A stretch of DNA of 64,000 nt from Dehalococcoidia bacterium (GTDB lineage Bacteria > Chloroflexota > Dehalococcoidia > SZUA-161 > SpSt-899): contig JBLYPS010000003.1 in the NCBI GenBank assembly GCA_048539495.1, forward strand, positions 31,486-95,485. The letters are read 5' to 3'. Within the stretch, counting starts at the first letter, position 1, and the number at the start of each line of letters is the position of its first letter. The notes beneath the pieces were generated by a model, which was given only the letters and a program-made list of their open reading frames with translations, was not told where the DNA came from and made no database searches. The translations under genes and the position numbers were made by a program. Positions 15,993-61,151 of this stretch are shown here, piece by piece.

Positions 15993-18560
15993 CTATATAG
16001 TAGAGATTAATTCTTTAACGCTTTTGAATCTGTACTTTTCAAACTCTTCCTGGTCAACTCTTATGAATGACCACTTATTCCCTGACAAGCCCGTAGCATC
16101 CTTGCACCATTTCTTCATCCTGTTGTCTTTATGCTCAACATCAACATCTTCTCTTCCTTTTGTTTCAATAATTATCTGTTCGCTGTTATCAGTTACTGCT
16201 ACAAAATCAGGGTAGTACAATCTAAGGTTACCCTTCGAGTCTCTATATTCTACAAAGAATCCTATTTTCGGAACGATTTTGCTGAAAGCCGTTACATCAT
16301 CAGCTCTATCCAAAAATTTGGCAAAATCTGCCTCAAAATCATTATCGCAAGGGACGTAGTTAAAGGGGCATCTGTTGGCTGGATAAACCAATTTTGACCA
16401 TACAAACGGTCTTGTATCCGAGACTTTTATGGTGTCCCTCTTTTCGGGTTCTCTTTCGATGAAGGTCATCTCTTTGAACGCATTCACAAATAACTTCATC
16501 AACTGTTCCTGAACATCTGGGGAACTCAATTTGTAAAGTACTTTTGGGTCTTCAAGGTCAATTTGCTGAGTAAACAATTTTTCCACAACATATTTTTTCA
16601 CCAGCGGATAAAAACTCGTAAAAGCACCACCTATCTTCAACCGCTTAAGTATCTGATCGGTATAATAGGCAATTACGCTTTTAGAATCCTGAGGCACAGG
16701 TAAATCCCATTTTCTTTTTATAACTTCCATACCTCTGAGCATATCCACAGCAACATATTCCATTTCTAAGACCTTATTCTCCAGAGGGATGTTCATAGGA
16801 GGCAAGTTATTAACATCCACCTCACTTAAATGAAATTCTCTTATGAAAATTCTTGGACTCAAGATAGGTATTTCAATGTCCCTATCCAATTTATTTTCAT
16901 CTACGAATATGGTGGTTAAATTAAGCGACTTTCCGGTGTCAAACTCAGCAAACTTTATCCCCTCCTGTTTTTCTAATTTTTCAAGAATATCTGTTAACCC
17001 TGGGGGGCCAATCACCTCAAGAACATTTACTGATTTGTCTATTGATGTATCTTCTCCTGGAAACATTTTCCTTAAACCCCGCCCAATGACCTGTTCCGGG
17101 AGCACCTCTCTTTTTGATCCATAGGACCTTAATCCCACAATGACGTTAACATTTCTCACGTCCCAACCCTCGTTTAGCATCATCGTACTGACTATTGCCT
17201 CTACACCATGAGGGAATAACTTTTCCAGCTCTTGATCCAGTGATATCTTCTCAGGGTCATCAATAAGCTTCGCCACCTTTCTCGCCTTGGGCAAGTCTGC
17301 TTTTTTAACCTCTCCGGTGCTATCTGTGTGTATCAGCAATACCTTACCCTTAAGGTCAGGAACAGCAGAAATATATTCAAATACCTCGTCTGCCTCCTCG
17401 TTCTCAGGGCATTGAAAGAACAGCACCGGCTTTTTTGATAATGGTTGTAGTGCCTTTTTGTATTCCCGCCATCTCCTTATCCCGGCATCAATCCATGCCC
17501 TATATCTCTCGACTACATTAGTTGATGCAATCTCTTCAGCATTCTTGACCATCCCCTTCAATGGTAACTTTACGATATTCATTTCAATTGCTTCCTTGAG
17601 CGAGAAGTCCACGATAATCCAGGGGAACAAAGCCCCGGCCTCGGTTTTAGGCGTAGCCGAGAAGTCCAGCTCCATATTTATGCCTTTACCGTGTTCAGAC
17701 ACCAGATTCTTGTTAAGATCAAGAAGTATCTTCTTCCATGCCTTTTCAAAACTGTAGATATGATGTGCTTCATCTTTCAAAATCATTATATTGGGACAGG
17801 AAGTTAAGACCTCCTTTATTCTGTTCTCCTGATAAATATCAGAAACATTATAAACCTCGGGCAATTCCATAACTTTATCTACATATTGTTCTACTTCTTC
17901 CTTTTTGCTCTGTCTTTGTTCCAACTGCTGGATATTGGTCACAAACAGCACACCCTCAGGAATAACATGAATCGGGTCTTCCTTAAGAATTACTTTGAGG
18001 TTAAATTCTTCCTGCCACTCTGGTGGAATAAGTGGCAATTCTCTGAATATTTTCCCATCCTCAAAATCTCTTGTAAGCCTGTCATAAATGATGTTTTTGT
18101 CACCCGCAATAACCAGAAATTTGGGGGTATAACCATCACTGTTTTCTTTTTTGTGATTGAAGTACTGCCATATAATGCTTATTGCCATGACGAAGGTTTT
18201 GCCGGAGCCTGTTGCCATTTTAAAGGCGTAAAGCGGATATTGATCATAAGAAGGGTCATACGCCTGTATAGCTCCTGCTCCGAAATCCCTTGCCATGTCT
18301 ATAAAGTTGCGTTTTTTCATCACTTCATAAACGTAAACCAATGTTTCAATCGCTTCCCTCTGGCAGAACCAGAACTCAAAAGGCTCACCATCTACAATAT
18401 GGTCTTCACTAAACCAGAATTGCAGCAGGCGGCGGGTGGTGTCGGTTGTCTTGGGATAGCCCTGTTCTCGCCAGGCGAAAACTGCCTTGCGAAGCTCATT
18501 GACTAAATAGGCTTCGCTTGTGCGTCTTTGTTGTGGATACAAAAGTTCGGCCGGTTTCAT
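15993..18560 (-). CDS. res: Type III restriction endonuclease Res subunit (SF2 helicase plus C-terminal PD-(D/E)xK nuclease)
   Basis: Motif I 'MATGSGKTFVMA', a DEAH box 'LKDEAHHIY', and a C-terminal 'YYPDFVAV...IIIETKG' nuclease motif. The gene lies in a low-GC region. Confidence 0.85.
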   Translation of the reverse strand: MKPAELLYPQQRRTSEAYLVNELRKAVFAWREQGYPKTTDTTRRLLQFWFSEDHIVDGEPFEFWFCQREAIETLVYVYEVMKKRNFIDMARDFGAGAIQAYDPSYDQYPLYAFKMATGSGKTFVMAISIIWQYFNHKKENSDGYTPKFLVIAGDKNIIYDRLTRDFEDGKIFRELPLIPPEWQEEFNLKVILKEDPIHVIPEGVLFVTNIQQLEQRQSKKEEVEQYVDKVMELPEVYNVSDIYQENRIKEVLTSCPNIMILKDEAHHIYSFEKAWKKILLDLNKNLVSEHGKGINMELDFSATPKTEAGALFPWIIVDFSLKEAIEMNIVKLPLKGMVKNAEEIASTNVVERYRAWIDAGIRRWREYKKALQPLSKKPVLFFQCPENEEADEVFEYISAVPDLKGKVLLIHTDSTGEVKKADLPKARKVAKLIDDPEKISLDQELEKLFPHGVEAIVSTMMLNEGWDVRNVNVIVGLRSYGSKREVLPEQVIGRGLRKMFPGEDTSIDKSVNVLEVIGPPGLTDILEKLEKQEGIKFAEFDTGKSLNLTTIFVDENKLDRDIEIPILSPRIFIREFHLSEVDVNNLPPMNIPLENKVLEMEYVAVDMLRGMEVIKRKWDLPVPQDSKSVIAYYTDQILKRLKIGGAFTSFYPLVKKYVVEKLFTQQIDLEDPKVLYKLSSPDVQEQLMKLFVNAFKEMTFIEREPEKRDTIKVSDTRPFVWSKLVYPANRCPFNYVPCDNDFEADFAKFLDRADDVTAFSKIVPKIGFFVEYRDSKGNLRLYYPDFVAVTDNSEQIIIETKGREDVDVEHKDNRMKKWCKDATGLSGNKWSFIRVDQEEFEKYRFKSVKELISTI

Positions 18561-18562
18561 AG

Positions 18563-18943
18563 CTATACCGCCGCTATTTGTTGTAGTTTTTCTAAAGTCC
18601 TTTTGGATAAATCAAGTGCAGTTTTTGCTCTCTGGGCATCAATACTCGCCTCACCTTCGTAATCAGCATCTTTTCTTTCCTTCCATAAGCGACGCAGGTT
18701 CTTGGCTATCTTCTTCTCCACATTACGTGATAATCCTTGGTATCTCTCCCTTACAAACTTGTGAGTGTCAACCCTTGGAATGGGTATGTTTTTAGCAATA
18801 AGATGATTCCTTGCAATACAAAATATGCCGTAATAAGAGCGACTCATTGCCGAACGCAGATAGGCTTCTCGCAAATCTACTTTTTCTTGGCAGGATATAA
18901 GTTCGTCAGCCAATTGGATATACAACTCCCAATTAAAACTCAT
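18563..18943 (-). CDS. Hypothetical protein in the restriction-modification operon
   Basis: The 126-aa ORF shows the usual operon coupling, with 3 nt between its stop and the res start. It is low GC. 'SRSYYGIFCIARNHL' is vaguely HEPN-like. Confidence 0.4.
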   Translation of the reverse strand: MSFNWELYIQLADELISCQEKVDLREAYLRSAMSRSYYGIFCIARNHLIAKNIPIPRVDTHKFVRERYQGLSRNVEKKIAKNLRRLWKERKDADYEGEASIDAQRAKTALDLSKRTLEKLQQIAAV

Positions 18944-19353
18944 CTTGGTCTCACCATTATTTCAAGTATATTACTAATATCGTCATCTACATAAAGCCAC
19001 CACTCCTCATCCAATCTATCTAAAAGATTCAGGGAGTCTTCAGGTGATAAGTTAGTTTTTATGATAATAAAAAGTCCTTCGAAATCTTCCTCGTGGTCGT
19101 GGTGAAGTTCTAACTCAAGAACAATATCATTACCAAACACACGTCTAATTTGCCAAAAGGCCTCTAACAAGACAGCCAATAATTCATGCTCTATAATGAA
19201 ACTTATAATTTCTGCTTCAGGATTGATAAAACTATATAATTGAAAGAGAGAGCTGACATTATCGGGCATAAAAAGTTCATTTTCTGTCAATGCTTCCGGG
19301 AAAGTCAAGGTTGTCATTTCTTTTCCTCTCCCTACCGCATTCTCACTACTCAT
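18940..19353 (-). CDS. Hypothetical acidic protein in the restriction-modification operon
   Basis: The 137-aa ORF has 4-nt overlaps with both neighbours and is low GC. Confidence 0.4.
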   Translation of the reverse strand: MSSENAVGRGKEMTTLTFPEALTENELFMPDNVSSLFQLYSFINPEAEIISFIIEHELLAVLLEAFWQIRRVFGNDIVLELELHHDHEEDFEGLFIIIKTNLSPEDSLNLLDRLDEEWWLYVDDDISNILEIMVRPR

Positions 19354-19356
19354 ACC

Positions 19357-20160
19357 TCACACCTCTATTTTTATTATCTTATTCGTATCGTTCCCAAATA
19401 CATCCACTACTTTAACCATTAGCTGATATTCCCCTGCCTCATCGTATGTGTGCATGGCTTCATAATCTACTTTCGGATTCTTTTTCACCCTGAAACTCTG
19501 CCACTGATTGTGGAAGGTGTCGCCTTTATAATCCCAATCAACCGCCCAGTAATCTATGAGTTCCCTTGAATCCTTTACCCTGCTGGCAATCTCTGCAAGC
19601 TCTGCGGTTGGTGCAAGTTGAAAGTCGGTGATTTTTAACGTTACTTCATTATCTTTAACTTTAGTTTCAATCTCCAGATAGGCAACCTCCGGGAATTTTA
19701 CATATTTCGAGAGTTCCTTTGCAACAACGTCATCCCTTATTTTCAGTAGTTGCAGGTCTAAACCTACTAAAGAGGATTTGATTTCATTCACGGATGGTAT
19801 CTGGATGAGTTTCAAATCAACGCTGTTCTTCTTTGCCAGGTCTTTCGCCAGTTCATTGACGTCATAACTCCACTCCCAGCCCAATATATCTGCTTTGTTG
19901 AAGTTATTTGCCCGGCACTCAATTACTACTTTTTCAACTTCGCCCATCGTCACAGGGGCATTCAACGGGCCAACATGAACCGCCCTGTTCCCCATCCTGC
20001 CATGCAGATATCTGAAGTCTCTTAATGGTTGCGCTTGATAGAGTTTAAGCATAAAGGCAAGGTATTCATCCTCTCTTTCCTGCCAGTAAACCGTTTCATA
20101 ATTGCCGATATTCCAGAGCTCAAAGGGTCTTGCGGGTTTATCATACTTTCTAGCGCTCAT
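19357..20160 (-). CDS. Hypothetical protein with an Ig-like C-terminus in the restriction-modification operon
   Basis: The 267-aa ORF has a 4-nt overlap with the upstream small ORF. Its C-terminus 'YQLMVKVVDVFGNDTNKIIKIEV' looks beta-sandwich-like. Confidence 0.45.
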   Translation of the reverse strand: MSARKYDKPARPFELWNIGNYETVYWQEREDEYLAFMLKLYQAQPLRDFRYLHGRMGNRAVHVGPLNAPVTMGEVEKVVIECRANNFNKADILGWEWSYDVNELAKDLAKKNSVDLKLIQIPSVNEIKSSLVGLDLQLLKIRDDVVAKELSKYVKFPEVAYLEIETKVKDNEVTLKITDFQLAPTAELAEIASRVKDSRELIDYWAVDWDYKGDTFHNQWQSFRVKKNPKVDYEAMHTYDEAGEYQLMVKVVDVFGNDTNKIIKIEV

Positions 20161-20372
20161 GGTTCATTTTTCCTACTATGTTCTTTATGTGATTGGCTCA
20201 AAAAATCTTCCATACCTATCCCAAATTTATTTTCAAAGCCCTTCTTTGCAATATCTTCATATTCACTGAAATTGGCAATAAACAAATCTAATAGGCTGGA
20301 AACACAATATTTACAACCACCGTCACACTCAAAAATTATCTCAATTACTTTTTGAGCTTCATCTTTTCTCAT
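20157..20372 (-). CDS. Small Cys-containing hypothetical protein
   Basis: The 71-aa ORF has the motif 'CDGGCKYC' and is translationally coupled to mod and the next ORF. Confidence 0.3.
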   Translation of the reverse strand: MRKDEAQKVIEIIFECDGGCKYCVSSLLDLFIANFSEYEDIAKKGFENKFGIGMEDFLSQSHKEHSRKNEP

Positions 20373-21483
20373 TTTCCGTCAAATCCTTTGAATTATGAAT
20401 GTCTAAAAGCCTTTTTCTGGTAACCTGAATGGCAAACTTGGATAAATCAGAGCCTATCCATTTTCTGCCTAATTTCTCTGCTGTTGCTAAGGTTGTGCCT
20501 GAGCCACAGAAGAAATCTGCAACGATGTCGCCGGGGTCCGTTGTAGCCATTAATAAAACTTGCAAAAGTCCCTCGGATTTTTGGGTCAGAAAGTTTAGAC
20601 ACTCAGCAGAAACATTTATGACAGGTTTTACATTAACTGTTAGTAGTTTGCTGTTATTCAAAACTAATGTGATTTTGTCCTGTAGCACATCTCGCAAAAG
20701 CACATCCGCATAATATCTTCCACTTGCATCCCTAAGAGAAGTAAAAAACGGTTTTTCGTAATAAACTCTTTCTTTTAGTTTATTAAATTTAGGGTTTGCA
20801 TTTTTAGAATAGAATAAAATAATATCATGCTTCTTAGGAAAATCGGCTTCTTTACTCGGGGCGCCCCCTGTTCTATAACACCATGATATCTCATTTCTAA
20901 AACCTAGCTTATTTTCTCCACCCGGTCCGAAAACTTCGTCCATCATCACCTTAACATAATGTCCCGCATGCCAGTCAAGGTGCACATAGATAGAACCATT
21001 TTCAGCCAATAATTCCCTCATCAAAACCAACCGCTCATACATATATTCGAGATAAGAAGCAATCCCACCGCTCCAGGTATCCTTATAAGCCCGCTCTTCT
21101 ATGATAGATGGCTCCTTTTCTATTGCTTCGTCTCCAATTTTTGTTCTTATCGTAAAATCTGAACCTGTGAAAAACGGCGGGTCAATGTAAATCAGATTTA
21201 TCTTCCCAACCCAGCCCTGTTTAATCAGAGAACTCATCACTAATTTGTTATCGCCCCAGATAAGAAGATTCTTCCAGTCCTTTGAATAATTGGCGGGATA
21301 CTCGTCTTCGGGGAAAAATGAAATCGTATATCCACCCTTAATTCTGGGCTTGTTTACTGTTTCAACAACCTGAAATGGGAGATTGGGTTTTTCTATCGGT
21401 TTCTTCTCCCCTTTTTCGTATCGGTCGTATTTTTCTGCCCAGAGCAGCTCTACGTACTTCTTGTTATCAGGCATCTTTATCAC
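20359..21483 (-). CDS. mod: Beta-class N6-adenine/N4-cytosine DNA methyltransferase (Type III Mod-like, compact)
   Basis: Motif IV 'IYIDPPFFTG' comes before motif I 'DFFCGSGTTLATAEKLGRKWIGSDL', which is the beta-class order. At 374 aa it is short for a Type III Mod. Confidence 0.8.
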   Translation of the reverse strand: MIKMPDNKKYVELLWAEKYDRYEKGEKKPIEKPNLPFQVVETVNKPRIKGGYTISFFPEDEYPANYSKDWKNLLIWGDNKLVMSSLIKQGWVGKINLIYIDPPFFTGSDFTIRTKIGDEAIEKEPSIIEERAYKDTWSGGIASYLEYMYERLVLMRELLAENGSIYVHLDWHAGHYVKVMMDEVFGPGGENKLGFRNEISWCYRTGGAPSKEADFPKKHDIILFYSKNANPKFNKLKERVYYEKPFFTSLRDASGRYYADVLLRDVLQDKITLVLNNSKLLTVNVKPVINVSAECLNFLTQKSEGLLQVLLMATTDPGDIVADFFCGSGTTLATAEKLGRKWIGSDLSKFAIQVTRKRLLDIHNSKDLTENEKR

Positions 21484-21974: not shown

Positions 21975-23492
21975 TTAGCCGGGGACTGTCCTTAACTGTG
22001 GAAACAGGATCACCTCCCGAATGGACTGGTGTCCAGTGAGGAGCATCACCAGCCGGTCGACCCCCATCCCCAACCCGCCCGTCGGGGGCATGCCGTGTTC
22101 TAAGGCCAGAAGGAAGTCCTCATCGATCCTCTCTGCCTCTTCATCGCCGAAGAGAGCTCTCACTCTTTCCTGTTCCTCGAAGCGCTCTCGCTGTTCCAGA
22201 GGGTCGTTGAGCTCACTGAAGGCATTGGCGATTTCCATTCCTCCGGCGAAGGCTTCGAATCGCTCCACCAGGTGGTCGCATCCCGGCTTTCTCTTGGCCA
22301 GGGGCGATAGCTTCACCGGGTAATCCATGAGGAATGTCGGCTGGATCAGGTTGGGCTCGACCGTATGGGAAAGTAAGTAATCAACGAGCTTGCCCCAACT
22401 CATTCCTTCCTCGACGCGGAGGCCGGTTTTCCTTATCTCTGCCTCGAGCGAGCGTGCGTCGGGGAAAGCCTCGAAATCGACCCCGCTTCCTTCTTTGATC
22501 GCCTCGCGCAGGGTGAGGCGCTGCCAGGGTGGAGAGAGGTCCACTGTCAGCTCGCCAAAGCTGATTCTCATCGTCCCCAAAACCTCCTTGGCGATGAAGG
22601 AGACCATTTGCTCGACCATCTCCATCACATCGTGGTAATCGGCATAGGCCTGGTAGCTCTCCAGAGTAGTGAATTCGGGATTATGTTTGGTAGAGATGCC
22701 TTCGTTGCGGAATATCCGCCCGATCTCGTAGACCCTGTCGAAGCCCCCGATAATGAGCCGTTTCAGATGAAGTTCGGTGGCGATGCGCAGATAGAGGTCG
22801 CTATCGAGGGCATGATGATGGGTAGCAAAAGGCCTGGCTAAAGCCCCGGCGGCAAGCGACTGCAACACCGGCGTTTCCACTTCGATGAATCCGCGCTTCT
22901 CAAGGAAACGTCGCATGGCCGAAATCGCCTGACTGCGCACCTCAAATGTGCGCCTTACCTGCTCGTTAGAGAGGAGATCGAGATATCGTTGGCGGTAGCG
23001 CTTCTCGACATCGGCAAGCCCATGCCACTTCTCGGGCAGAGGCTGCAGTGACTTCGACAGCATCGTGAAGTCGGATACCTTAACGGTGATCTCCCCGGCC
23101 CGAGTCTCGAAGAGCTCTCCTTCAACACCGATGAAATCGCCGATGTCGAAGTCTTGAAGCAGGCTATACTTCTCTTCGCCTATGGCATCCCGCTGGAGAT
23201 AGGCCTGAACCTTGCCCGATCCATCCCTGATATCCAGAAAGATAGCCTTGCCCATGGAGCGCATGGCTGTAATACGACCGGCGAGCTTCAGAGTCTGGAG
23301 ACGCTTCGCTCTGGAGACGATTTGCTCTGGAATCCCACTCCCCTCGACTCTCGACTCTCGATAGAGAGTGATGGCTTCCTGCGTAGTATGGCTACATAAG
23401 TATCGGGCAGGGTATGGATTGACACCGCGACTGCGGATTCTCTGGAGCTTGTCCAAGCGGCTTTGGATTAACTCTGCTTTTCTTTGTGCCAT
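21975..23492 (-). CDS. lysS: Lysyl-tRNA synthetase (class II)
   Basis: An OB-fold N-domain 'GRITAMRSMGKAIFLDIRDGSGKVQ' and a class II core are present. The gene lies downstream of greA, as in many bacteria. Confidence 0.9.
   Translation of the reverse strand: MAQRKAELIQSRLDKLQRIRSRGVNPYPARYLCSHTTQEAITLYRESRVEGSGIPEQIVSRAKRLQTLKLAGRITAMRSMGKAIFLDIRDGSGKVQAYLQRDAIGEEKYSLLQDFDIGDFIGVEGELFETRAGEITVKVSDFTMLSKSLQPLPEKWHGLADVEKRYRQRYLDLLSNEQVRRTFEVRSQAISAMRRFLEKRGFIEVETPVLQSLAAGALARPFATHHHALDSDLYLRIATELHLKRLIIGGFDRVYEIGRIFRNEGISTKHNPEFTTLESYQAYADYHDVMEMVEQMVSFIAKEVLGTMRISFGELTVDLSPPWQRLTLREAIKEGSGVDFEAFPDARSLEAEIRKTGLRVEEGMSWGKLVDYLLSHTVEPNLIQPTFLMDYPVKLSPLAKRKPGCDHLVERFEAFAGGMEIANAFSELNDPLEQRERFEEQERVRALFGDEEAERIDEDFLLALEHGMPPTGGLGMGVDRLVMLLTGHQSIREVILFPQLRTVPG
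23288..23372. repeat. Tandem-unit repeat inside the lysS N-terminal region
   Basis: The sequence 'ctggagacgcttcgctctggagacgatttgctctggaatcccactcccctcgactctcgactctcgatagagagtg' contains repeated ctctggagacg and actctcg units around a 'cccactcccctcg' core. Confidence 0.4.
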
Positions 23493-23973: not shown

Positions 23974-24197
23974 AGTCCCTTCCTCCCCTAAAATAATCAA
24001 AAAACTGAGAGTCCCCGACTCTCAGTCAGACACTGTTTTTCTCTGAGCACTCAGCCCCGTGTACTGATCCGGGCTGAGCGCAATTCGAGTTCTACTTTGC
24101 AGCGAGGGAAATCCGAAGCTCGAGGCTTCCTTAATTCTATATTATACTACGGAACGGTTAACTGTTCAACGTTGAACCTCGAACTTTGAACCTTTCC

Positions 24198-27101
24198 TTA
24201 CTCCATTTCGCCCCAATTCTGGCCCAGTTTGGTCTCCACCTTAAGAGACACGCTAAGCTCCATTGCCGCTGACATGATCTCCTGTACTAGTCGTTTCATC
24301 AACTCGATCTCTGCCTGCGGCACCTCAAAAAGAAGCTCGTCATGCACCTGAAGGATCATCTTGCTCTTGAGACTCCTAATATCTATCTCGTTCTGGATGT
24401 TGATCATCGCCAGCTTTATGATGTCGGCAGCGGTGCCCTGGACCGGCATGTTTATGGCCATCCGCTCCGCCGCTTGCCGCACTTGATAATTGGAGGAATT
24501 AATCTCCGGGATATACCGCCTTCTTCCCATCACCGTTTGAACGTATCCTTTTTCAACCGCGTGCTGCTTGGTCAAGTTAACATAATCCCTGACGCCGCGG
24601 TATCTTTCGAAGTAGGCGTTAATAAAATCGGTCGCTTTCTGGCGGGAGAGCCCGGTGGCCTGTTCCAGGCCATAATCGCCCATACCGTAGATCACACCGA
24701 AATTCACCACCTTGGCTATTCGTCTCATCTCTGAGGTCACCTCGTATGTCTCCACGCCGAAGACCTGCGAGGCGGTGGCGGCATGGATATCCTCGTCGTG
24801 GGCGAAAGCGGCCAGGAGCCCGGGATCCTGCGATAGATGCGCCATAACGCGGAGCTCGATCTGGGAGTAATCCGCACTCAACAGCCAAGAGTCGAGAGTC
24901 GAGAGTCGAGAGTCGAGAGTCCCCCTCGCCCCCCGACTCCAGACTCCAGACTCCCGACTCCAGACTCCCTTTGGGGCGACGAAAGCCTGTCTGATCCGAT
25001 TTCCTATCTCAGTACGCACGGGGATATTCTGCAGATTGGGATCGCTCGATGATAAACGCCCGGTAGCGGTGACGGTCTGATTGAAATTGGTATGCACCCT
25101 TCCGGTCTCCGGATCGATGAGGGCTGGGAGGGCATCAACATAGGTTGATTTGAGCTTGGCGAGCTGGCGATACTCGATGATGTGCTCAATAGCGGGGTGC
25201 TCGCCCCGTAGCCCCTCCAGGACTGAGATATCCGTGGAGTAACCGCTCTTGGTCTTGCGCCCCGGGGTCAGCTTAAGCTCATCGAAAAGAATCCTCCCCA
25301 GTTGTTGGGTGGAGTTTATATTGAACTTATACCCCACCGACTCGTAAATCTCACCCTCGATCCTGGCCATCTCCATAAACATGACCTGCGACATATCCCG
25401 AAGCAAGCTAGTATCCAGAGCTATCCCATTCCTCTCCATCCGATATAAGACCGGAACCAGCGGCATCTCAACCTCGACGAAAAGATCCCACAACCCCTCT
25501 CTCTTCAGTTCTGCCTCCAGAAGTTGGCTTAGTCTACCCGTCATATCGGCATCGGCGCAGGCGTAATCGGCGGCTAGTGCAATGCTGACATCGGCCATAG
25601 AACCCTGTTTCGGTCCCGACCCGATGAGGGCGCTTATGGGGGTCATCTCAATGCCCAGTTTGCCGAAAGTGAGCTGCTTCAACCCTAGAGACTTCTCCCC
25701 CAGAAGATGCGCCGCGATCATGGTATCGAAGTTGATATGCTGCAATTCCAACCCGTGTTGCCAGAGAACGGTCATATCATACTTGGCATTGTGGGCTATC
25801 TTCGAAATAGCGGGGTCTATCATGATAGGCTTGAGTCTGGTAGTGATCTCGGATAGAGAGAGTTGACTAGTTGATAGTTGATAGTTGATAGTCGCTGGTC
25901 CCTCCCCACCCCAGACTGCCGACTGCTGACTGCTGACTGCCGACTGCCTGTGCCCGACGGGGATATACCAGGCCTTCGCCGGAGTCATCGAAAGAGAGAT
26001 GCCTACCAATGTCGTGTGTCTTGCCTCTTTGCCGGAGGTCTCCGTATCCACCACTAATGCCCCGGCTGTGGAGAGTTCCTCCACCAGTTCATTAAGGGCT
26101 TCGGAGGTAGCCACTATTTCATAAAAAGTCGAGAGTTCAGAAGGACGGGTATCTTGCCCGTCATCTCCAGTCAAGGGGAGGGGGACTCCAGACTCCAGAC
26201 TCCAAACTCCAGACTCGGATGTTGTCCCCGGCAGTTTGTCCAGGAGACTGAAGAACTCCAGCTCTCGAAACAGCGCGGTAACCGTGTCCCGCTTATAGCT
26301 GCTCACGCGGCAGGATGAGAGGTCGAGGCTTACCGGGACATCGGTGACGATGGTGGCTAACTTTTTGCTCTGTCGTGCCACTTCTTCATTGGACCGTAGG
26401 ATCTTTTGAATCCTGAGCGGGCTCACCTCGTCGATTCGTCGGTAGATTCCTTCCAGGCTGTCAAATTGCTGGATAAGCTTGACGGCGATCTTCTCTCCGA
26501 TACCGGCTACTCCAGGGATATTATCCGTCTGATCGCCTTTGAGGCCCTTCAGGTCGGCAAGCTGCTGTGGTCGGAGGCTGTATCGCTGCTGTACCGCTGC
26601 TTCATCGTAAAGTTGAGTGTCACTGAACGGGCGCCGGGGCCGGGGAAGAAGCACCTCGACACCGGGGGAGACAAGCTGCAGGGTATCGGTATCGCCGGTT
26701 ACGATGATAGAATAGATCCCCTGTGCGCTGGCCTGCTGGCTGAGAGCACCAAGAATATCGTCGGCCTCGTAGCCTTCCACCTCAAAGGCGAGGACGCCGA
26801 GGGCCTGGACCAGTTGGCGAACGACGGCGAATTGTGAGATGAGCTCGTCAGGCGCTTTGGGACGGTGCGCCTTATAATCCTGAAACTGAATATGCCTGAA
26901 GGTGGGAGCGGCGGTGTCGAAGGCGATTGCCCAGTGTGAGGGCTTAAACTCTTCGAGTGTCTTCAGGAGCATGCTTGCGAAGCCATAAACAGCCCCCGTT
27001 GGTTTTCCCTCCTTGGTCGAAAGTGCCGGCAGGGCATGGAAGGCGCGATGGATAAGGGCATGTCCGTCGAATAGGAGAAGCAGCGGTCTTTCTGTTGACA
27101 T
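24198..27101 (-). CDS. polA: DNA polymerase I
   Basis: A 5'-nuclease N-terminus, a 3'-5' exonuclease region and polymerase motifs ('DYSQIELR', 'QVHDEL') are present. At 967 aa it is enlarged by three in-frame repeat insertions. Confidence 0.9.
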   Translation of the reverse strand: MSTERPLLLLFDGHALIHRAFHALPALSTKEGKPTGAVYGFASMLLKTLEEFKPSHWAIAFDTAAPTFRHIQFQDYKAHRPKAPDELISQFAVVRQLVQALGVLAFEVEGYEADDILGALSQQASAQGIYSIIVTGDTDTLQLVSPGVEVLLPRPRRPFSDTQLYDEAAVQQRYSLRPQQLADLKGLKGDQTDNIPGVAGIGEKIAVKLIQQFDSLEGIYRRIDEVSPLRIQKILRSNEEVARQSKKLATIVTDVPVSLDLSSCRVSSYKRDTVTALFRELEFFSLLDKLPGTTSESGVWSLESGVPLPLTGDDGQDTRPSELSTFYEIVATSEALNELVEELSTAGALVVDTETSGKEARHTTLVGISLSMTPAKAWYIPVGHRQSAVSSQQSAVWGGEGPATINYQLSTSQLSLSEITTRLKPIMIDPAISKIAHNAKYDMTVLWQHGLELQHINFDTMIAAHLLGEKSLGLKQLTFGKLGIEMTPISALIGSGPKQGSMADVSIALAADYACADADMTGRLSQLLEAELKREGLWDLFVEVEMPLVPVLYRMERNGIALDTSLLRDMSQVMFMEMARIEGEIYESVGYKFNINSTQQLGRILFDELKLTPGRKTKSGYSTDISVLEGLRGEHPAIEHIIEYRQLAKLKSTYVDALPALIDPETGRVHTNFNQTVTATGRLSSSDPNLQNIPVRTEIGNRIRQAFVAPKGVWSRESGVWSRGARGTLDSRLSTLDSWLLSADYSQIELRVMAHLSQDPGLLAAFAHDEDIHAATASQVFGVETYEVTSEMRRIAKVVNFGVIYGMGDYGLEQATGLSRQKATDFINAYFERYRGVRDYVNLTKQHAVEKGYVQTVMGRRRYIPEINSSNYQVRQAAERMAINMPVQGTAADIIKLAMINIQNEIDIRSLKSKMILQVHDELLFEVPQAEIELMKRLVQEIMSAAMELSVSLKVETKLGQNWGEME
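24889..24970. repeat. In-frame heptamer-array palindromic insertion in polA (immediately before motif A)
   Basis: '(gagtcga)n' and 'ccccctcgcccccc' and '(gactcca)n' encode SRESGVWSRESGVWSRGARG just upstream of LLSADYSQIELR. Confidence 0.65.
25856..25950. repeat. In-frame tandem-heptamer insertion in the polA 3'-5' exonuclease region
   Basis: '(agttgat)n' and 'gctggtccctccccacccca' and '(gactgcc/gactgct)n' encode SAVSSQQSAVWGGEGPATINYQLSTSQLSL. Confidence 0.6.
26165..26217. repeat. In-frame repeat in the polA inter-domain linker
   Basis: 'ggggagggggactccagactccagactccaaactccagactc' encodes SGVWSLESGVPLPLTG. Confidence 0.55.
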
Positions 27102-28549: not shown

Positions 28550-28750
28550 TAACCCGGACGAGCCGGAACCAACAAGGCATATTGTCGTTTAAATTCGAAA
28601 TTCGAAGCACGAAATACTAAACAAATCCCAAAGTTCAAATGTTCAAAACTGCCCCATATTTGGAATTTTCCTATTTGGATTTGTTTAGTGCTTAGAAATT
28701 AGGATTTAGGATTTTTCCATTTTGCGCAAGACTTTAGACTTAAGGGACTA
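28550..28750 (+). repeat. ~200-bp direct repeat, copy 1 (island boundary or noncoding element)
   Basis: It is about 93% identical to 44690-44889 in the same orientation. It contains the internal inverted repeat 'cgaagcacgaaatactaaacaaatcc' / 'ggatttgtttagtgcttag'. Confidence 0.7.
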
Positions 28751-31343: not shown

Positions 31344-32012
31344 ATGAAAAGGTCGCTAATGTACTTTAAAGCCGTAGTCTTCGATCTCGACGGAACGCTT
31401 CTTGACACGCTGGAAGATATTGCCCACTCCGCAAATACTGTGCTGGCAAGACGCGGCTTCCCCACACACAGCCTGGACGACTACCGTTATTTCGTGGGCG
31501 AAGGGGTGACTACGCTTATTACCCGCGTGCTGCCCGACGAGAAACGGAACGATGACACCATAGCGGAGTGCGTAAGGGCATTTCGGGAAGAGTATGGTCG
31601 TAACTGGAATGTGAAGACGACGCCATATGACGGTGTGCCGCAGATGCTCGATGAGCTGGCGTCGCGCCATCTAAAACTGGCAGTGCTCTCCAACAAGCCG
31701 GATGATTTCACCAAAAAATGTGTCACGGAACTCCTGCCAGACTGGACATTCGAGATAGTTTTGGGCCTCCACAGTGGAATTCCGCCCAAGCCGGACCCAA
31801 CAGGTGCCTCTCAGGTAGCTGAGTACTTGAGTGTCCCGCCGTCACGCATCCTCTACGTGGGGGATTCCGGCATAGATATGAAGACAGCCATCGCTGCCGG
31901 CATGTTCCCGCTAGGGGTACTCTGGGGATTCAGGTCACAAGAGGAGCTCCAGGATAACGGGGCGCAGGCACTGATCTCACGACCACAGGAGATTTTGGCT
32001 GTCTTGTATTAG
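31344..32012 (+). CDS. HAD-superfamily phosphatase (phosphoglycolate phosphatase-like)
   Basis: Motif I 'VVFDLDGTLLDT', 'LSNKP' and 'VGDSGIDMKTA' are present. The 5' 138 bp of this gene are duplicated at 34962-35100. Confidence 0.7.
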   Translation: MKRSLMYFKAVVFDLDGTLLDTLEDIAHSANTVLARRGFPTHSLDDYRYFVGEGVTTLITRVLPDEKRNDDTIAECVRAFREEYGRNWNVKTTPYDGVPQMLDELASRHLKLAVLSNKPDDFTKKCVTELLPDWTFEIVLGLHSGIPPKPDPTGASQVAEYLSVPPSRILYVGDSGIDMKTAIAAGMFPLGVLWGFRSQEELQDNGAQALISRPQEILAVLY

Positions 32013-33061
32013 CTATCAGCTTTCAGAAGGGGAGGGGGACCCCTGACTCTTGACTCTTGACTAAAAGACAGCAGGTCGCACTTGTTGCCCACCACCAGCA
32101 CCGCTCTGCTATCCAGGAGCTCGATGACCTCGAAATCGGCGGCATTAAGCGGTTCGCTGATATCAGTCACCAGCAGGACAAGCGCCGCCTGCTCAATGGC
32201 CTTACGGCTCCGCTCCACGCCCAGGGTCTCGATCACATCTTCGCTGTGAGTGATCCCCGCGGTGTCGATCAGAACGAAAGTCACTCCTTCTAAGTTCACT
32301 ACCTCTTCCAGAGTATCGCGGGTGGTGCCGGGGATGGGGATCACGATGGCCCGATTCTCCCGTAACAACCGATTCAACAAGCTCGACTTCCCCACATTCG
32401 GCCGTCCCACGATGGCCGTCCGCACGCCCTGACGATAGACGATACCGACATCGGCGCCGGCGATGAGTTCATCCAGCTCGAAGTGTGCTTTCTTGATTGG
32501 CTCCAGGGCATCCTGTTCCTCGACCTCGTCCTCGGGGAAATCAATTCTCGCAGTGAGGTAGGCCAGCACGGATAGTAAGTCGTTCCGTATCAACCTAATT
32601 TGCCCGGAGAGCCTTCCCCCCAATCCCTGCACCGCCAGGCGGAGGCTGGCCTGCGTCCTGGCCTGCACGATGTCCAGGACCGACTCCGCCTGCGAGAGGT
32701 CAATCCTGCCGTTCAGGAATGCCCTCAGCGTGAATTCGCCCGGCTCAGCCAGCCGGGCTCCGAGCTTAAGTGTAAGTCCCAGTATATGCTGCAGAGGCAC
32801 AATGCCACCGTGACAGTTGATCTCTACGATGTCCTCCCGGGTATAGGTGTGGGGAGCAGCCATATAGGCCACCAGCACCTCATCAACCACCTCGCAGGTT
32901 CCGGGATCGATTATGTGCCCGTAGCTCAGTCGGCGGTCCGAGAGCCTCTTATCAAAAAGTTTTGTCGCAATCGAGCAGGCGTCCTGCCCGCTGAGACGGA
33001 CGATCCTGATCCCGCCCTCGCCAATGGGGGTAGAGATAGCTGCGATGGTATCTTGATACAT
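32009..33061 (-). pseudogene. mnmE: tRNA modification GTPase MnmE, 3'-truncated
   Basis: The N-domain 'IAAISTPIGEGGIRIVRLSG', 'GEFTLRAFLNGRIDLSQAE', and G-domain motifs G1 to G4 ('GRPNVGKSS', 'DTAG', 'NKCDL') are present. The ORF ends in a repeat-derived tail 'SQESRVRGPPPLLKADS'. It lacks the C-terminal helical domain and the CxGK motif. The 3' end abuts the convergent HAD gene. Confidence 0.55.
32013..32065. repeat. G-rich core plus heptamer array at the mnmE truncation point
   Basis: The sequence is 'ttcagaaggggagggggacccctgactcttgactcttgactaaaag'. Confidence 0.5.
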
Positions 33062-35157: not shown

Positions 35158-35794
35158 TGTTTTCGCTGACTGCTGACCGCTGCAGATGGCAGGTGTCATT
35201 CAGCACGATGAACGCCGCTCCATAGGGTGAGGTCTCCATGATGGTGACCGAGGCGCTGCCGAGGCGCACCTGCCACCAGTGCTCCAGGCCAATTCCCAGC
35301 AGCAGGCAGATAAGCACTTGCAGCGAGCCCCCGTGAGCCACCACTAACACCGTTTCCTCGGGTTCATATCCCTTCAGCTCCTCGGCGAACTGGGCCACCC
35401 TGGCGCCAAGTTGAGCTATGCTCTCACCGTTAGGGAGACGAATTTCCGGACTTCTGGTTCGCCAGGCTTGAAGATCGCCGGCGATCCGGGGGTAGTTCTC
35501 CTTGATCTCGTCGAAGGTCATTCCTTCAGCCTGGCCGAAGTCCATCTCCCTCAATAACGCTGTTTGACGGATCTCCGCCATGCCGTGCATCGAGGCGATG
35601 CTCCGAGCAGTTTCACACGCCCGGGAGAGGTCGCTGGAGTAGATAACATCTATCCTCTCACCGGCAAGTCGATCCCTCACCCTTGCCGCCTGTTCGATCC
35701 CATTGTCGTTCAAGTGGATATCGCTGTGGCCCTGATACCGAAACGACTTGTTCCACTCCGTCTCGCCGTGCCTTACAAGTATAAGCCTAGCCAA
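35153..35794 (-). CDS. cobC: Alpha-ribazole phosphatase (histidine phosphatase family)
   Basis: The 'LVRHGETEWN' RHG motif is present. The gene is adjacent to cobS and cobT. Confidence 0.75.
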   Translation of the reverse strand: MARLILVRHGETEWNKSFRYQGHSDIHLNDNGIEQAARVRDRLAGERIDVIYSSDLSRACETARSIASMHGMAEIRQTALLREMDFGQAEGMTFDEIKENYPRIAGDLQAWRTRSPEIRLPNGESIAQLGARVAQFAEELKGYEPEETVLVVAHGGSLQVLICLLLGIGLEHWWQVRLGSASVTIMETSPYGAAFIVLNDTCHLQRSAVSENR

Positions 35795-36567
35795 CTTGTT
35801 CCTCCTAGTTTACCGATTATGATGATCAGAATCAGCGTCGCTACCTCGGAAAGCTCGATTATAGCACCATAGGTATCGCCCGTAAGTCCGCCGAGGCGTG
35901 AGCTGAGAGTTCTCGCCAGCAGAAAGCTGGTAACCCAAACCACAACCACCATCGCTACCCCGGCGTAACTCAGAAAAGCCGCTGCTGCAGCTACGGCGAT
36001 CACCGTTGCCATGCCCATCTTCAGCCAGCTCGCCTGCTTCTTGAACACCTGGCCCAGTCCCTCCTTCTTAGCGGAGGGGAAGGCAGTGATAGCGTAGGTA
36101 GCACTCCATCTACTCAGGGTAGGCATCAGCAGGAGCGCTGCCGCTCTCAACCCCACCGGCATGGTTATCAGCGAGATAACTTTAAGCAGGATGAGGCAGC
36201 ATGCCCCCACCACCCCGAACCCCCCCACCCGGCTATCGGCCATCACCCTGAGCCTTTCGGCCGCGGAGCTCCTCAAGGCAAACCCATCGCAGGTGTCCAT
36301 CAATCCATCGAGATGGAGCGCACCAGTGAAGAGAATAAGCGAAACGACCAGTAAGGCGCTCACGAGCAGCGGAGGCAGGAAGAGTCCCAGTAGCTGGTCG
36401 AGCCCCAACAGGATCGCCCCCAATATAAGCCCCACCAGCGAGAAGTAGCTTATCGAGCGGCCAATCCCGCTCTCACTGAAGCCTCGGCCTCCTGGGGCAG
36501 GGAATACGGTGAGAAACTGCCAGGCAGTCCAGAAACCCAAATCGTCTCCTCTCCGTTCAAGGTTCAA
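35773..36567 (-). CDS. cobS: Adenosylcobinamide-GDP ribazoletransferase (cobalamin synthase)
   Basis: The 264-aa polytopic membrane protein has a CobS-like profile 'LLVSLILFTGALHLDGLMDTCDG'. Confidence 0.8.
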   Translation of the reverse strand: MNLERRGDDLGFWTAWQFLTVFPAPGGRGFSESGIGRSISYFSLVGLILGAILLGLDQLLGLFLPPLLVSALLVVSLILFTGALHLDGLMDTCDGFALRSSAAERLRVMADSRVGGFGVVGACCLILLKVISLITMPVGLRAAALLLMPTLSRWSATYAITAFPSAKKEGLGQVFKKQASWLKMGMATVIAVAAAAAFLSYAGVAMVVVVWVTSFLLARTLSSRLGGLTGDTYGAIIELSEVATLILIIIIGKLGGTSWLGLYL

Positions 36568-58401: not shown

Positions 58402-58938
58402 ATGAATGAAAGAATTGATCCAGAGGGACTAAGCCTGACTGAGACGTTGGTTCATGTCAGACGAGTGGCCAAGACGGTGGGCGGAGGGCGAAAACTTTCC
58501 TTCAGTGCCCTGGTAGTGGTTGGCGATAATCAGGGTCATGTAGGCTCCGGCCTTGGCAAGGGCAAAGAAATTCCGGTGGCCATCGGAAAGGGGACAGCCG
58601 CAGCCAAGAAGAACCTTATTCGGGTGCCGATGAATGGGAGCACTATTACTCACGAGATAACTGCCAAGTTTGGCGCTGCTAAGGTCTTGCTCAAACCAGC
58701 AGCCCCTGGAACCGGAGTGATTGCCGGCAAGGCAGTCCGATCCGTGATTGAGTCCGCCGGGATAAAGGATATCCTGAGTAAATCGCTGGGCAGCACTAAT
58801 CCTATCAATGTAGTTCAGGCGACTATACGCGCGCTGAGCGAGCTAAAGGATCCGAAACGAGAGTCAAGAGTCCAGACTCCAGAGTCGAGAGTCAAGGAGG
58901 GAGGGGAACTCCAGAATCCACTTGACATTGTCAGATGA
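58402..58938 (+). CDS. rpsE: 30S ribosomal protein S5 with a repeat-derived C-terminal extension
   Basis: An S5 dsRBD and C-terminal domain are present. The tail '[28 protein letters not shown]' is encoded by a heptamer array (58858-58900) and the end of the MITE-like element. Confidence 0.9.
58858..58900. repeat. Heptamer array with G-rich core inside the rpsE 3' end
   Basis: The sequence is 'gagtcaagagtccagactccagagtcgagagtcaaggagggagggg'. Confidence 0.55.
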
Positions 58939-59733: not shown

Positions 59734-61056
59734 ATGCCCAAATTACTGCAGGCCGTGATGGACTCCCTCCGTCACCCCGAATTGAGGCGGAAGCTACTTT
59801 TCACCTTCGGCATTCTGGTGATTTTTCGCTTTATGGCCCATATTCCGCTGCCGGGGGTGGATGCAGTGGCACTCCGTAAGCTTTTCGATGCGGGGGATAT
59901 GCCACTCTTAGGTATGCTCGACCTCTTCACAGGGGGGGCATTACGGAACTTCAGCATAGTCGCCGTGGGGATTTTCCCCTACATAACTGCCTCGATCATA
60001 ATGCAGCTTCTGGTGCCGGTGATTCCCCAACTTCAGGCGCTGTCTAAAGAAGGAGAGGGCGGGAAAAACAAACTGAAGCAGTATACTCTCTGGCTGACTG
60101 TCCCCCTGGCTATGCTTTCGGGGTATGGGCAATTGGTCCTCTTCAGTCGGCCCCTGGTGGCGGGGATAGAGCCTGCCATCAGAGACGTCGGCTTCCAACT
60201 CCCCACGATATCAATGGTGCTTTCTCTCACGGCGGGCACGATGCTGCTCGTATGGCTCGGGGAACGCATCACCGAGAGCGGCATCGGTAATGGCATCTCG
60301 ATAATCATTTTCGGCGGGATCGTGGCCGGGATGCCCGAGCAAATGATGCTCACACACGAGGTTGCTCGGATCGGCGGCCTGCTGAGCCTGATTATATTGA
60401 TGGTTGTCATTGCCCTGTTGATAGTGTTTGTGACTGAGGCCAGCCGGCGCGTTCCGGTTCAGTATTCACGAAGCACCTTCCGTGGCGGAAGGGTTTATCG
60501 TCAGAGCGGGGGGACGCACATTCCCCTTAAGGTAAACTCCACCGGCATGATCCCCATCATCTTTGCTTTCGCCATAATAATGTTTCCCCCAACGATAGCC
60601 AGCTACTTTGCTAATCCCGTGGGGCAAGATCCCAACCTTGCTAATTGGATTCAAGATGCCTTCAACCCCGCAGGAGACTATTGGTGGGCTTACTATGGAT
60701 TTCTTTTCCTCCTTGTCGTTGGCTTTACCTTCTTCTACACGATAGTTACCTTCGAGCAGCAGAATATCCCCGAGACTTTACAGAAACAAGGGGGTTTTAT
60801 TCCGGGTATTCGCCCCGGGAGGTCAACGGCAGAGTACGTTAATGGAGTTCTTATGCGAATAACCTGGGGCGGGGCGATATTTCTGGGGTTCATAGCGATC
60901 TCGCCGGTGGTTGCCCAGTGGGCTGCCGGTGTCGACGTCCCCGTTATGATTATCGGGGGGGTGGGATTGCTCATTGCGGTCGGGGTGATTCTCGATACCA
61001 TGAGGCAAATGGAGGCGCAGCTCCTGATGCGTCATTACGAAGGATTCATTAAGTGA
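59734..61056 (+). CDS. secY: Preprotein translocase subunit SecY
   Basis: A 10-transmembrane SecY profile is present. The start is probably MPKLLQAV, preceded by an AGGAGG site. The ORF in the track extends to 59707. Confidence 0.9.
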   Translation: MPKLLQAVMDSLRHPELRRKLLFTFGILVIFRFMAHIPLPGVDAVALRKLFDAGDMPLLGMLDLFTGGALRNFSIVAVGIFPYITASIIMQLLVPVIPQLQALSKEGEGGKNKLKQYTLWLTVPLAMLSGYGQLVLFSRPLVAGIEPAIRDVGFQLPTISMVLSLTAGTMLLVWLGERITESGIGNGISIIIFGGIVAGMPEQMMLTHEVARIGGLLSLIILMVVIALLIVFVTEASRRVPVQYSRSTFRGGRVYRQSGGTHIPLKVNSTGMIPIIFAFAIIMFPPTIASYFANPVGQDPNLANWIQDAFNPAGDYWWAYYGFLFLLVVGFTFFYTIVTFEQQNIPETLQKQGGFIPGIRPGRSTAEYVNGVLMRITWGGAIFLGFIAISPVVAQWAAGVDVPVMIIGGVGLLIAVGVILDTMRQMEAQLLMRHYEGFIK

Positions 61057-61127
61057 ACGGGTTCAAGGCTCAGAGTTCAAGGTTCAAGGTTGAACCGTGA
61101 ACCGTGAACCGTAAACCGTGAACCGCA
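61054..61127. repeat. Family D palindromic repeat ((GGTTCAA)n / (TGAACCG)n)
   Basis: The sequence is 'tgaacgggttcaaggctcagagttcaaggttcaaggttgaaccgtgaaccgtgaaccgtaaaccgtgaaccg'. The secY TGA stop is its first unit. Confidence 0.6.
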
Positions 61128-61151
61128 ATAATTATTATGGAGGCTGAATAA

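Follow-up and report, generated by a model that had tools for sequence, protein, structure and literature searches.

Tandem-heptamer elements in polA and across its genomic neighbourhood in a Dehalococcoidia bacterium

Introduction

Small repeats that lie in frame within protein-coding genes are best known from Rickettsia, whose palindromic elements (RPEs) are the extreme case of fusion between a small repeat and an open reading frame (ORF); a review of 2024 considers that similar processes may exist elsewhere (PMC10969869). [quoted passage not shown] Here we analyse a stretch of 64,000 nucleotides from a Dehalococcoidia bacterium (assembly GCA_048539495.1, contig JBLYPS010000003.1, positions 31,486 to 95,485 of the forward strand), called the window below, in which polA, the gene for DNA polymerase I, carries three in-frame segments made of arrays of 7-nt units next to a G-rich core. 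These segments, named elements A, B and C, had been described in an original prediction, made from the DNA letters alone, as palindromic insertions of a kind rare in essential genes. Our analysis indicates that such elements are a genome-wide feature and not specific to polA, which is one visible part of a probable repeat burst.

Like RPEs, the elements are short and palindrome-forming, belong to one lineage, lie in frame in unrelated housekeeping genes, encode peptides compatible with the host fold and come without a recognisable transposase (PMC10969869). In-frame ORF insertion of the RPE type is seen in the three loop segments of polA, in 33 additional nucleotides of lysS and in the tail of rpsE. 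RPEs, however, measure about 100-150 bp, have a unique family consensus and a conserved peptide, contain neither tandem heptamers nor a G-rich core, and are hosted by obligate intracellular Alphaproteobacteria, whereas the elements described here, found in Dehalococcoidia, are 50-95 nt long, consist of 7-nt units in varying number and differ in length by steps of 21 nt. The predicted distinction from RPEs is therefore one of size, internal structure and host, drawn from the descriptions of RPEs.

The other obvious relatives are heptanucleotide arrays. Those of cyanobacteria, the STRR repeats, were reportedly described by Mazel in 1990, and Elhai et al. are said to have found in 2008 very small elements (SDR) nested in heptamer arrays of Nostoc. 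The STRR units of heterocystous cyanobacteria are CCCCAGT, TTGGTCA and CAACAGT. Heptanucleotide arrays are, as far as the work of Mrazek (2007) is summarised in PMC4679880, the commonest long simple-sequence repeats of prokaryotes. They have been described in Beggiatoaceae, where TAACTGA arrays include ORF copies (PMC4679880), in Xanthomonas and Nostoc (PMC4692102), within genes of Geobacter (PMC2700814) and in Chloroflexus (PMC6749651).

Results

Three heptamer elements in a conserved polA gene

The polA gene is an intact ORF on the minus strand (24198-27101) encoding 967 amino acids. Its product matches Taq Pol I with an E value of 4e-176 and the Klenow and Bst fragments with E values of 1e-142 to 1e-125, and Pfam families were found for all three activities (5' nuclease, 3'-5' exonuclease and family-A polymerase). 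The motifs DTET (residues 352-355), HNAKYD (437-442), YACADAD (513-519), motif A LLSADYSQIELR (740-751), motif B (793-806) and QVHDE (918-922) are in place, and none of the catalytic and metal-binding residues of the three activities is missing or varies in an alignment of 60 orthologous sequences.

Period-7 arrays were located with Tandem Repeats Finder (TRF), which reported five of them within polA, bearing out the predicted tandem 7-nt arrays around cores. Element C (24885..24971, minus strand) consists of the arrays AGAGTCG x4.9 (24888-24921) and GACTCCA x4.9 (24935-24968) on either side of the core CCCCTCGCCCCCC (24922-24934); in the coding sense it reads (GGAGTCT/G)x5, GGGGGGCGAGGGGG, (ACTCTCG)x5 and encodes KGVWSRESGVWSRGARGTLDSRLSTLDSW, a peptide not exactly the same as the one originally written. 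Protein and DNA alignments with orthologues place it within residues 711-739, with a net gain of 72 nt or 24 amino acids, and it ends at W739, so that one insert does lie directly before motif A, as had been predicted. Element B (25863..25949, minus strand) is located in the exonuclease domain between Exo I and Exo II, within residues 385-413, and adds a net 69 nt or 23 amino acids. Its arrays, AGTTGAT x4.4 (25861-25892) and GACTGCC x5.0 (25914-25948), enclose the core GGTCCCTCCCCACCCCA (25897-25913), and the coding strand reads (GCAGTCR)x5, TGGGGTGGGGAGGGACC, (ACTATCA)x4, encoding RQSAVSSQQSAVWGGEGPATINYQLSTSQ. Element A (26124..26219, minus strand) lies in the linker that joins the 5' nuclease to the exonuclease, encodes SESGVWSLESGVPLPL... 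and comprises one array, GACTCCA x4.7 (26184-26216), the core GGGGAGGGGG (26175-26184) and, in plus-strand coordinates, a decayed arm (26124-26141) and a small perfect hairpin of 7 bp (26144-26162) that bears no relation to the heptamer arms. It corresponds to residues 295-310 and to a net gain of 48 nt or 16 amino acids relative to the loci L001 and L002 introduced below. Frame preservation suggests that the inserts are translated; GVWSRESGVWSR and TINYQLSTSQ are predicted PolA peptides that would span inserts.

An AlphaFold2 model of PolA was built from the 60-sequence alignment, with a mean predicted local distance difference test score (pLDDT) of 84.5. Apart from the first three residues, pLDDT falls below 50 only at residues 293-322, 388-410 and 713-734, which are the three inserts, and these lie in loops, as the original prediction had proposed to check by structure prediction. 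Insert A forms part of the interdomain linker, insert B lies between a strand (376-381) and a helix (416-427), and insert C occupies the turn that joins a short strand (707-708) to the strand of motif A (738-745). Low model confidence in these loops, together with the conserved catalytic residues, makes a working enzyme with disordered surface loops the most likely reading. If the model is right, a family-A polymerase tolerates a predicted disordered insert of 24 residues six residues before the catalytic aspartate of motif A, and would tolerate further inserts in its proofreading domain and interdomain linker. Such tolerance may be useful for polymerase engineering and for reading odd indels in proteins from metagenome-assembled genomes (MAGs).

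Filled and empty sites in related genomes

PolA was aligned with 13 and then with 59 orthologues, and the DNA was aligned with four related loci, L001 to L004. The closest relatives of PolA all come from MAGs named as Dehalococcoidia or Chloroflexota. They include P0001 at L004 (99% identical PolA), P0002 at L001 (92%) and P0003 at L002 (85%).

Element C is present in the window, L004 and L001, and is identical at 71 of 72 nt between the window and L001, their polA DNA being about 93% identical; L002, L003 and the other orthologues aligned all lack it. Element B is complete in the window and in L004, the L001 copy is shorter by exactly 21 nt, that is, by three heptamers of one arm, and L002, L003 and all more distant orthologues aligned have none. 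Both B and C are thus missing from orthologues that retain about 85% amino acid identity (P0003-P0006). Element A is common only to the window and P0001/L004; an unrelated, shorter linker is found in P0002/L001 and P0003/L002, and remnants of the element A repeat (RESGVWNLES, DSRLQT) occur in the same linker of P0004-P0006. The three segments (+48, +69 and +72 nt) are therefore in-frame and lineage-specific, as had been proposed, although A looks like a replaced linker rather than a clean insertion.

A fourth element was found in the polA gene of L001. It is 69 nt long, has the structure (CAGTCGG)n-GGGGGGCGGGGGG-(CTATCGA)n and lies 45 nt upstream of B, at a site that corresponds to a beta-hairpin turn and is empty in the polA of the window. 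The indels observed in ORFs measure 72, 69, 69, 48, 33 and 21 nt, all six being multiples of 3; without a constraint on the frame, this would occur by chance with a probability of about (1/3)^6 = 0.0014. The empty C site showed neither a G-rich nor a heptamer seed; in the empty B site, GGGACC and GGGGT are reminiscent of portions of the core.

Filled and empty states are not limited to polA. At the junction of tyrS and accD, the window (11270-11340) carries a hairpin-containing insertion of 73 nt relative to the empty site of L002 (9316-9336). This insertion alters the C-terminus of tyrS and separates the two genes, which overlap in L002.

A heptamer-based repeat family across the window

A count of exact period-7 tracts with 2.5 copies or more gave 15 for the window and none for any of 30 dinucleotide-preserving shuffles; periods of 4-6 and 8-15 showed no enrichment over shuffles in the same 64 kb. 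About 25 heptamer-based elements are present in the window, mostly hairpins located at some 20 intergenic sites. Each element is 50-95 nt long, with 2.5-5 heptamer copies on each side of a core of 10-17 nt, and copy number varies between alleles. Copies within ORFs follow the architecture (NNNAGTC)n, GGGGnGGGG core, (GACTNNN)n. In an alignment of these copies (A3), the core-arm junction GGGG(G)ACTC is conserved among polA A, B and C and the copies in lysS, rpsE and mnmE, and the same design recurs in the extra copy of L001, in a linker copy of L003 and in a copy from a Dehalococcoidia single-cell genome. The G-rich core is found in either orientation relative to the arms, and cores or arms are flipped between the A and C copies of polA and between P0005 and P0006. 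The core was also considered as an independent dispersed motif and rejected: GGGGAGGGGG with at most one mismatch has 18 matches against 9.4 expected, a mild enrichment, and these lie mostly inside elements.

Three further ORF copies occur in the window. The copy in lysS, the lysyl-tRNA synthetase gene (23290..23366, minus strand), is in frame in the N-terminal region, reads (GAGTCGA)x2.7, GGGGAGTGGG, ATTCCAGA... in the coding sense and encodes ...RESRVEGSGIPE...; it adds 33 nt relative to the lysS of L002, is also present in L001 and L004, and is followed by the Pfam domains, which begin only after it. The rpsE copy (58855..58925, plus strand; detected by TRF) has the composition (GAGTCNA)n, GGAGGGAGGGGA, ACTCCAGAATCCA and forms the C-terminal tail of ribosomal protein S5, whose Pfam S5_C domain stops at residue 152 of 178, before the element-encoded tail. 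The original emphasis on an essential gene is better carried by these two copies than by polA. In model bacteria such as E. coli, polA is not strictly essential. The third copy (GGGGAGGGGG, ACCCCTG, ACTCTTG x2; 32029..32062, plus strand) is located at the premature 3' end of mnmE (trmE; ORF 32009-33061, minus strand). This ORF encodes 350 amino acids and ends soon after the G4 motif (NKCDL) in the element-encoded SQESRVRGPPPLLKADS*; it matches only positions 1-97 of the 211 positions of the Pfam MnmE_helical domain, the C-terminal half of the helical domain being missing. The end of mnmE at a heptamer element could be a truncation or a rearrangement breakpoint. A convergent gene for a HAD hydrolase lies next to the truncated mnmE.

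Families with other heptamers, namely TAATGGG/CCTATAA, GGTTCAA/TGAACCG and GGCTATTAG/CCTTCAGCC, are intergenic only, lie between cistrons and form significant hairpins. Hairpins of the type (TAATGGG/GTGATGG)n-GGYTACGSGGTACC-(CCTATAA)n, detected by TRF, are located between ribosomal-protein genes at 50430-50510 (plus strand), 52085-52165 and 62630-62715, and the same family continues between ribosomal-protein genes at 63130-63215 and 63630-63690. The hairpin (GGTTCAA)n(TGAACCG)n (61055..61130, plus strand; DNA z -4.5) lies between secY and adk, and related arrays are found just 3' of polA (24150-24200) and at 47345-47415.

The partition between ORFs and intergenic regions follows the stop-codon content of the units. 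GAGTC-type units contain no stop codon in any frame of either strand, whereas 22 of the 25 intergenic arrays have a stop on at least one strand and the units of the TAATGGG family have stops on both, so that a simple filter explains which families are found in ORFs. Element B is readable in its observed orientation only, because the AGTTGAT unit contains a stop on the plus strand.

The elements also mislead gene calling, giving spurious short ORFs, shifted starts (fusA, cobS) and the truncated mnmE. The mechanically called ORFs of fusA (47940-50093, plus strand) and cobS (35773-36567, minus strand) start inside upstream heptamer elements; since their Pfam domains set in about 25-30 (fusA) and about 15 (cobS) residues further on, the genes probably start downstream of the called positions.

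Inteins, introns and programmed frameshifts were ruled out for the polA segments, which are 16-24 residues long, lack splicing motifs and keep the frame without stops. In Rfam 15 no match to the elements was found, and the only hits in the whole window at the gathering score were two tRNA-Ser genes.

Folding of the elements

Of the three polA segments, only C fully fits the description as palindromic; for B it depends on conditions, and for A it applies to a former state. Element C forms a strong hairpin on both strands, with DNA z scores of -4.5 and -4.0 and RNA folding energies of -43.9 and -53.1 kcal/mol, the latter on the sense strand of polA. Element B shows no folding as DNA (z -0.8 and 0.0). 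As RNA it folds solely on the plus strand (z -3.1 vs -0.4), the one antisense to polA, because its arms are complementary through G.U pairs. The structure of element A is weak (z -1.2 to -1.7), one of its arms having decayed. Significant folding has likewise been lost in the lysS and rpsE copies, the z scores of these two and of polA-A ranging from about 0 to -1.7. The arm arrays are partly complementary, and no distinct terminal sequence was seen outside the arrays.

In the TAATGGG family, all five copies fold 9-21 kcal/mol better as sense-strand than as antisense RNA, which implies G.U pairing in RNA and suggests that these hairpins are transcribed intercistronic structures. A uniform strand bias of RNA folding with respect to transcription was rejected: it is seen in 5/5 TAATGGG copies and is mixed in the other families.

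Distribution outside the window

Period-7 tracts number six each in L001 and L004, and none was found in 29 kb of neighbourhood of L002 and L003, whose PolA proteins are about 85% identical; their intergenic spacers measure about 11 nt, against hairpins of 60-75 nt in the window. Across 80 more distant polA loci, 9 tracts were counted in 537 kb. The absence of tracts from L002 and L003 and their scarcity in distant loci indicate a recent expansion in a narrow lineage. The distant loci were taken from a scan of metagenomes for polA, in which the best match was 66% identical and none belonged to the lineage of the window, and were reused here as background.

The unit itself is distributed more widely. 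The matches listed for the 20-mer (GGAGTCT)x2.9 come from more than 115 genome contigs, a lower bound, and extend over Acidobacteriota (Pyrinomonadaceae, Blastocatellia, Chloracidobacterium), Planctomycetota and cyanobacteria as well as a single-cell genome of Dehalococcoidia. In the Acidobacteriota (Pyrinomonadaceae, Chloracidobacterium) the array frequently forms perfect (GGAGTCT)n-loop-(AGACTCC)n hairpins, and the (GGAGTCT)n array is present in 70 viral contigs (L200-L269). Genome-contig loci with GGAGTCT arrays include L012, L013, L015, L020, L024, L049, L064 and L083. In addition, unrelated metagenomic polA genes, 38-55% identical to that of the window, contain heptamer arrays that are solitary and in frame and lie in the linker or the exonuclease domain, at L138 1006-1024, L182 1122-1153 and 1679-1711, and L184 2921-2948. 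Their units are (CAGCTAT)n, (AACTCAG)n, (AATTTCC)n and (AGGGTTC)n, and two of the arrays are in the linker that holds element A. A protein search with (GVWSLES)x6 gave 35 matches, all hypothetical ORFs of 40-74 residues lying over arrays, in a search where arrays of the length seen in PolA cannot reach significance. Literal searches of the literature with the sequences of array units found no microbial paper.

Judged from these sequences, array-stem hairpins and presumptively translated heptamer arrays recur among bacteria; the unusual points here are their density, the design of a core plus two arms, and the presence of three or four copies in one enzyme. The rarity first claimed for insertion in essential genes is accordingly limited to architecture and density, since heptamer arrays as such have been described in other phyla (PMC4679880, PMC2700814, PMC6749651).

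Discussion

Comparison with heptamer arrays and small mobile elements

The window shares with the cyanobacterial STRR/SDR systems dispersed heptamer arrays of several different units, nested small elements, hairpin potential, occasional intragenic copies and no known mobility enzyme. An STRR-type over-representation of heptanucleotides at many loci is present. The elements differ in phylum and in units, and the arm-core-arm design and multiple in-frame copies in one enzyme are not known from the STRR/SDR systems; none of the units CCCCAGT, TTGGTCA or CAACAGT, or their rotations, is among the TRF consensus units of the window.

The TAACTGA repeats of marine Beggiatoaceae, cyanobacteria and Bacteroidetes resemble the elements in being concentrated immediately upstream of starts, with a minority in ORFs in a stop-free orientation, and both are patchy across phyla (PMC4679880). 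Both also yield 7-residue periods on translation, LSVISYQ in TAACTGA arrays (PMC4679880) and GVWSRES or INYQLST in the putative translations here. TAACTGA arrays, in contrast, are direct repeats (one indirect case in 170) with one dominant unit, have neither core nor hairpin, and their ORF copies are mostly at termini. Multicopy heptanucleotide arrays are also known as GGACCGG x4 in Geobacter metallireducens and as (GATAGRA)n in Chloroflexus aurantiacus, whose unit, from the same phylum as the window, resembles the GATAGTT arm of element B (PMC6749651). These arrays are single and direct, and neither paired inverted arms, a core, nor an analysis of frame or protein location was described for them.

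With MITEs and with the REP, BIME and REPIN repeats, the elements have in common that they are short, non-autonomous inverted repeats forming intercistronic hairpins and are sometimes fused to ORFs (PMC5896051, PMC10969869, PMC3116915). MITEs, however, have terminal inverted repeats, target-site duplications and a parent insertion sequence, REPINs depend on a RAYT transposase, and neither is built of heptamers; a parent insertion-sequence transposase or a RAYT was not found in about 40 ORFs of the window. By analogy, the elements would act like RPEs, as tolerated in-frame selfish insertions, and be built like arrays of the STRR/SDR type.

Origin of the polA segments

We read the observed presence/absence polymorphism, frame preservation, loop location, wide family and shared architecture as the outcome of a lineage-specific burst of non-autonomous hairpin repeats, of which only stop-free, in-frame copies at loop sites were kept in ORFs, and we give this reading a probability of roughly 0.6. 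The polA segments would then be copies of a short (about 50-95 nt), non-coding and non-autonomous family that underwent a recent expansion, together with sister families made of other heptamers, within a single narrow lineage of Dehalococcoidia. The majority of copies would reside between genes, as hairpins in transcripts. A copy landing in an ORF would be kept only if its unit is free of stops in the three frames of the coding strand, if the total length added is a multiple of 3, and if the site encodes a linker, a loop or a beta-turn; survivors would be translated as disordered surface loops of an enzyme that still functions, and may be neutral for PolA. After insertion, array length would shift by replication slippage, which is frame-safe in an ORF only in multiples of 3 nt and, for one arm, means three units (21 nt), and arms would be homogenised or flipped by intrastrand template switching between inverted arrays. 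The 21-nt difference in B points to slippage after insertion, and the flipped cores and arms suggest template switching or recombination between inverted arrays.

The arrays could instead have grown in place, by slippage of a local seed followed by formation of the second arm through hairpin template switching, with no movement between loci. Polymerase slippage has been proposed for heptamers as the most abundant long simple-sequence repeats of many prokaryotes (Mrazek 2007, to the extent that PMC4679880 summarises it), and the one-arm difference of 21 nt between the B copies of the window and L001 demonstrates that slippage does occur. The recurrence of (GGAGTCT)n in unrelated phyla and viruses, the solitary in-frame arrays of unrelated polA genes, and the core-like GGGACC and GGGGT at the empty B site are also in keeping with local growth. 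Each step of 7 nt would nevertheless break the reading frame, which makes a stepwise route to 5+5 units very unlikely; the empty C site holds no seed, and core sequence and core-arm junction are common to distant loci. Some 25 elements were gained in the lineage of the window and none in sister lineages with the same genes, a burst-like pattern. The lack of a frame-safe route by 7-nt growth, the missing C seed and the shared cores and junctions together favour insertion of pre-formed elements, and the shared architecture with its conserved junction argues for common descent and dispersal over independent slippage at each locus. We therefore regard growth in place as unlikely.

Somewhat less probable still is that the hairpins were maintained as functional RNA or DNA structures, such as stabilisers, attenuators, terminators, processing sites or protein-binding arrays, in the manner of REP/BIME, the polA copies being retained for regulation of polA or as useful flexible loops. 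For the intercistronic copies, especially those of the TAATGGG family, a functional hairpin role is plausible: they lie exactly between cistrons, often over stop codons, form significant hairpins, and in the TAATGGG family fold better on the sense strand by the margin given above in 5/5 copies. Element C would likewise form a hairpin of -53 kcal/mol in polA mRNA and keeps 71 of 72 nt between the window and L001, and TAACTGA arrays located upstream of start codons have been suggested to act in translation (PMC4679880). Against a functional role as a general account, the lysS, rpsE and polA-A copies have no significant folding and B folds only antisense to polA, the inserts are missing from close relatives with the same gene order, strand preference is mixed across families, no Rfam family matches, and the B peptide diverges fast between the window and P0002. 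An artefact of assembly or binning, in which mis-assembled or chimeric repeats would conceal a real polA devoid of the segments, is highly improbable. MAG assemblies may collapse or misjoin short repeats, and the organism of the window is uncultured; yet a sequencing read is longer than the elements, all of the ORF copies are in frame and free of stops, and the same sites with an intact frame occur in three independent assemblies (the window, GCA_018725325 and GCA_018725445), the flanking DNA of which differs by 0.7% and about 7%. Since element C is present in all three with its frame preserved, an assembly artefact is excluded there, and the frame disruption that would have marked an artefact was not encountered.

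Several observations weigh against a burst of inserted repeats. No transposase, RAYT or reverse transcriptase was recognised among the roughly 40 ORFs scanned in the window, and a target-site duplication or target motif was not definable at polA B and C, the extra site of L001 or tyrS/accD, where the flanks are 7-15% diverged. Relative to close orthologues, element A is a replaced linker and not a clean insertion, and element C replaces about five codons rather than merely adding sequence. Unit sequences vary between subfamilies while the period stays at 7, which points to a cause at the level of process that copying from a master element does not explain. The occurrence of (GGAGTCT)n arrays in unrelated phyla and viruses means that arrays of this unit may arise independently, and translation of the inserts is presumed from frame preservation.

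A more tentative extension of the burst reading, to which we give well under even odds, is that the elements form a very small class of mobile DNA in which a G-rich core with self-extending, partly complementary heptamer arrays spreads without a dedicated transposase. Spread would proceed through hairpin or template-switch replication intermediates or ectopic repair, and would be compatible with coding sequence where units are stop-free in all frames. If this is so, the Dehalococcoidia lineage would be a free-living counterpart of the RPE phenomenon of Rickettsia, and its closely related filled and empty alleles would offer a natural system for the question of why the period is 7 nt. On the burst reading itself, selfish DNA within housekeeping proteins would be found in an uncultured, free-living phylum as well, and with a tandem-heptamer design. 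Filled and empty sites, the 21-nt step and the flipped cores and arms could give a handle on transposase-free movement and on the preference for a 7-nt period.

Neighbouring features

An island of about 6 kb in the interval between lysS and serS (15993-21483, minus strand), missing in the syntenic L002, encodes a Type III restriction-modification system and a HEPN-family protein. Mod is split into two ORFs (20359-21483 and 19357-20160), its best solved relative being EcoP15I Mod, and Res is encoded at 15993-18560. The GGAGTCT unit contains GAGTC, which is a GANTC site (HinfI/CcrM-type) and a PleI/N.BstNBI site. A link between GAGTC/GANTC units and the neighbouring Type III Mod is a speculative possibility; other families lack GANTC.

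A MITE-like repeat of about 110-135 nt is located at 28585-28720 and 44755-44865, with a third copy at L004 4550-4749, and heptamer arrays of small size (AAATTCG, TTAGGAT) sit at its ends. The window and the 99%-identical L004 lose synteny near 29015, close to the copy at 28585-28720. An AbiEii/AbiEi toxin-antitoxin pair adjoins a LonB/LonC-like AAA protease (40254-41941 and 42165-44621, both minus strand). The mutL gene that follows is intact (44922-46619), so mismatch repair appears to be present despite the instability of the repeats. Finally, leuS (1237-3834) contains an in-frame repeat of 13 nt, CGGACACGGGGGA x3.5 (3305-3349, plus strand), with a period unlike that of the heptamers; the repeat is translated in the ORF as a stretch rich in Gly, Arg and Thr, …PDTGEGHGGRTRGTD…, that directly precedes the anticodon-binding domain of leucyl-tRNA synthetase.

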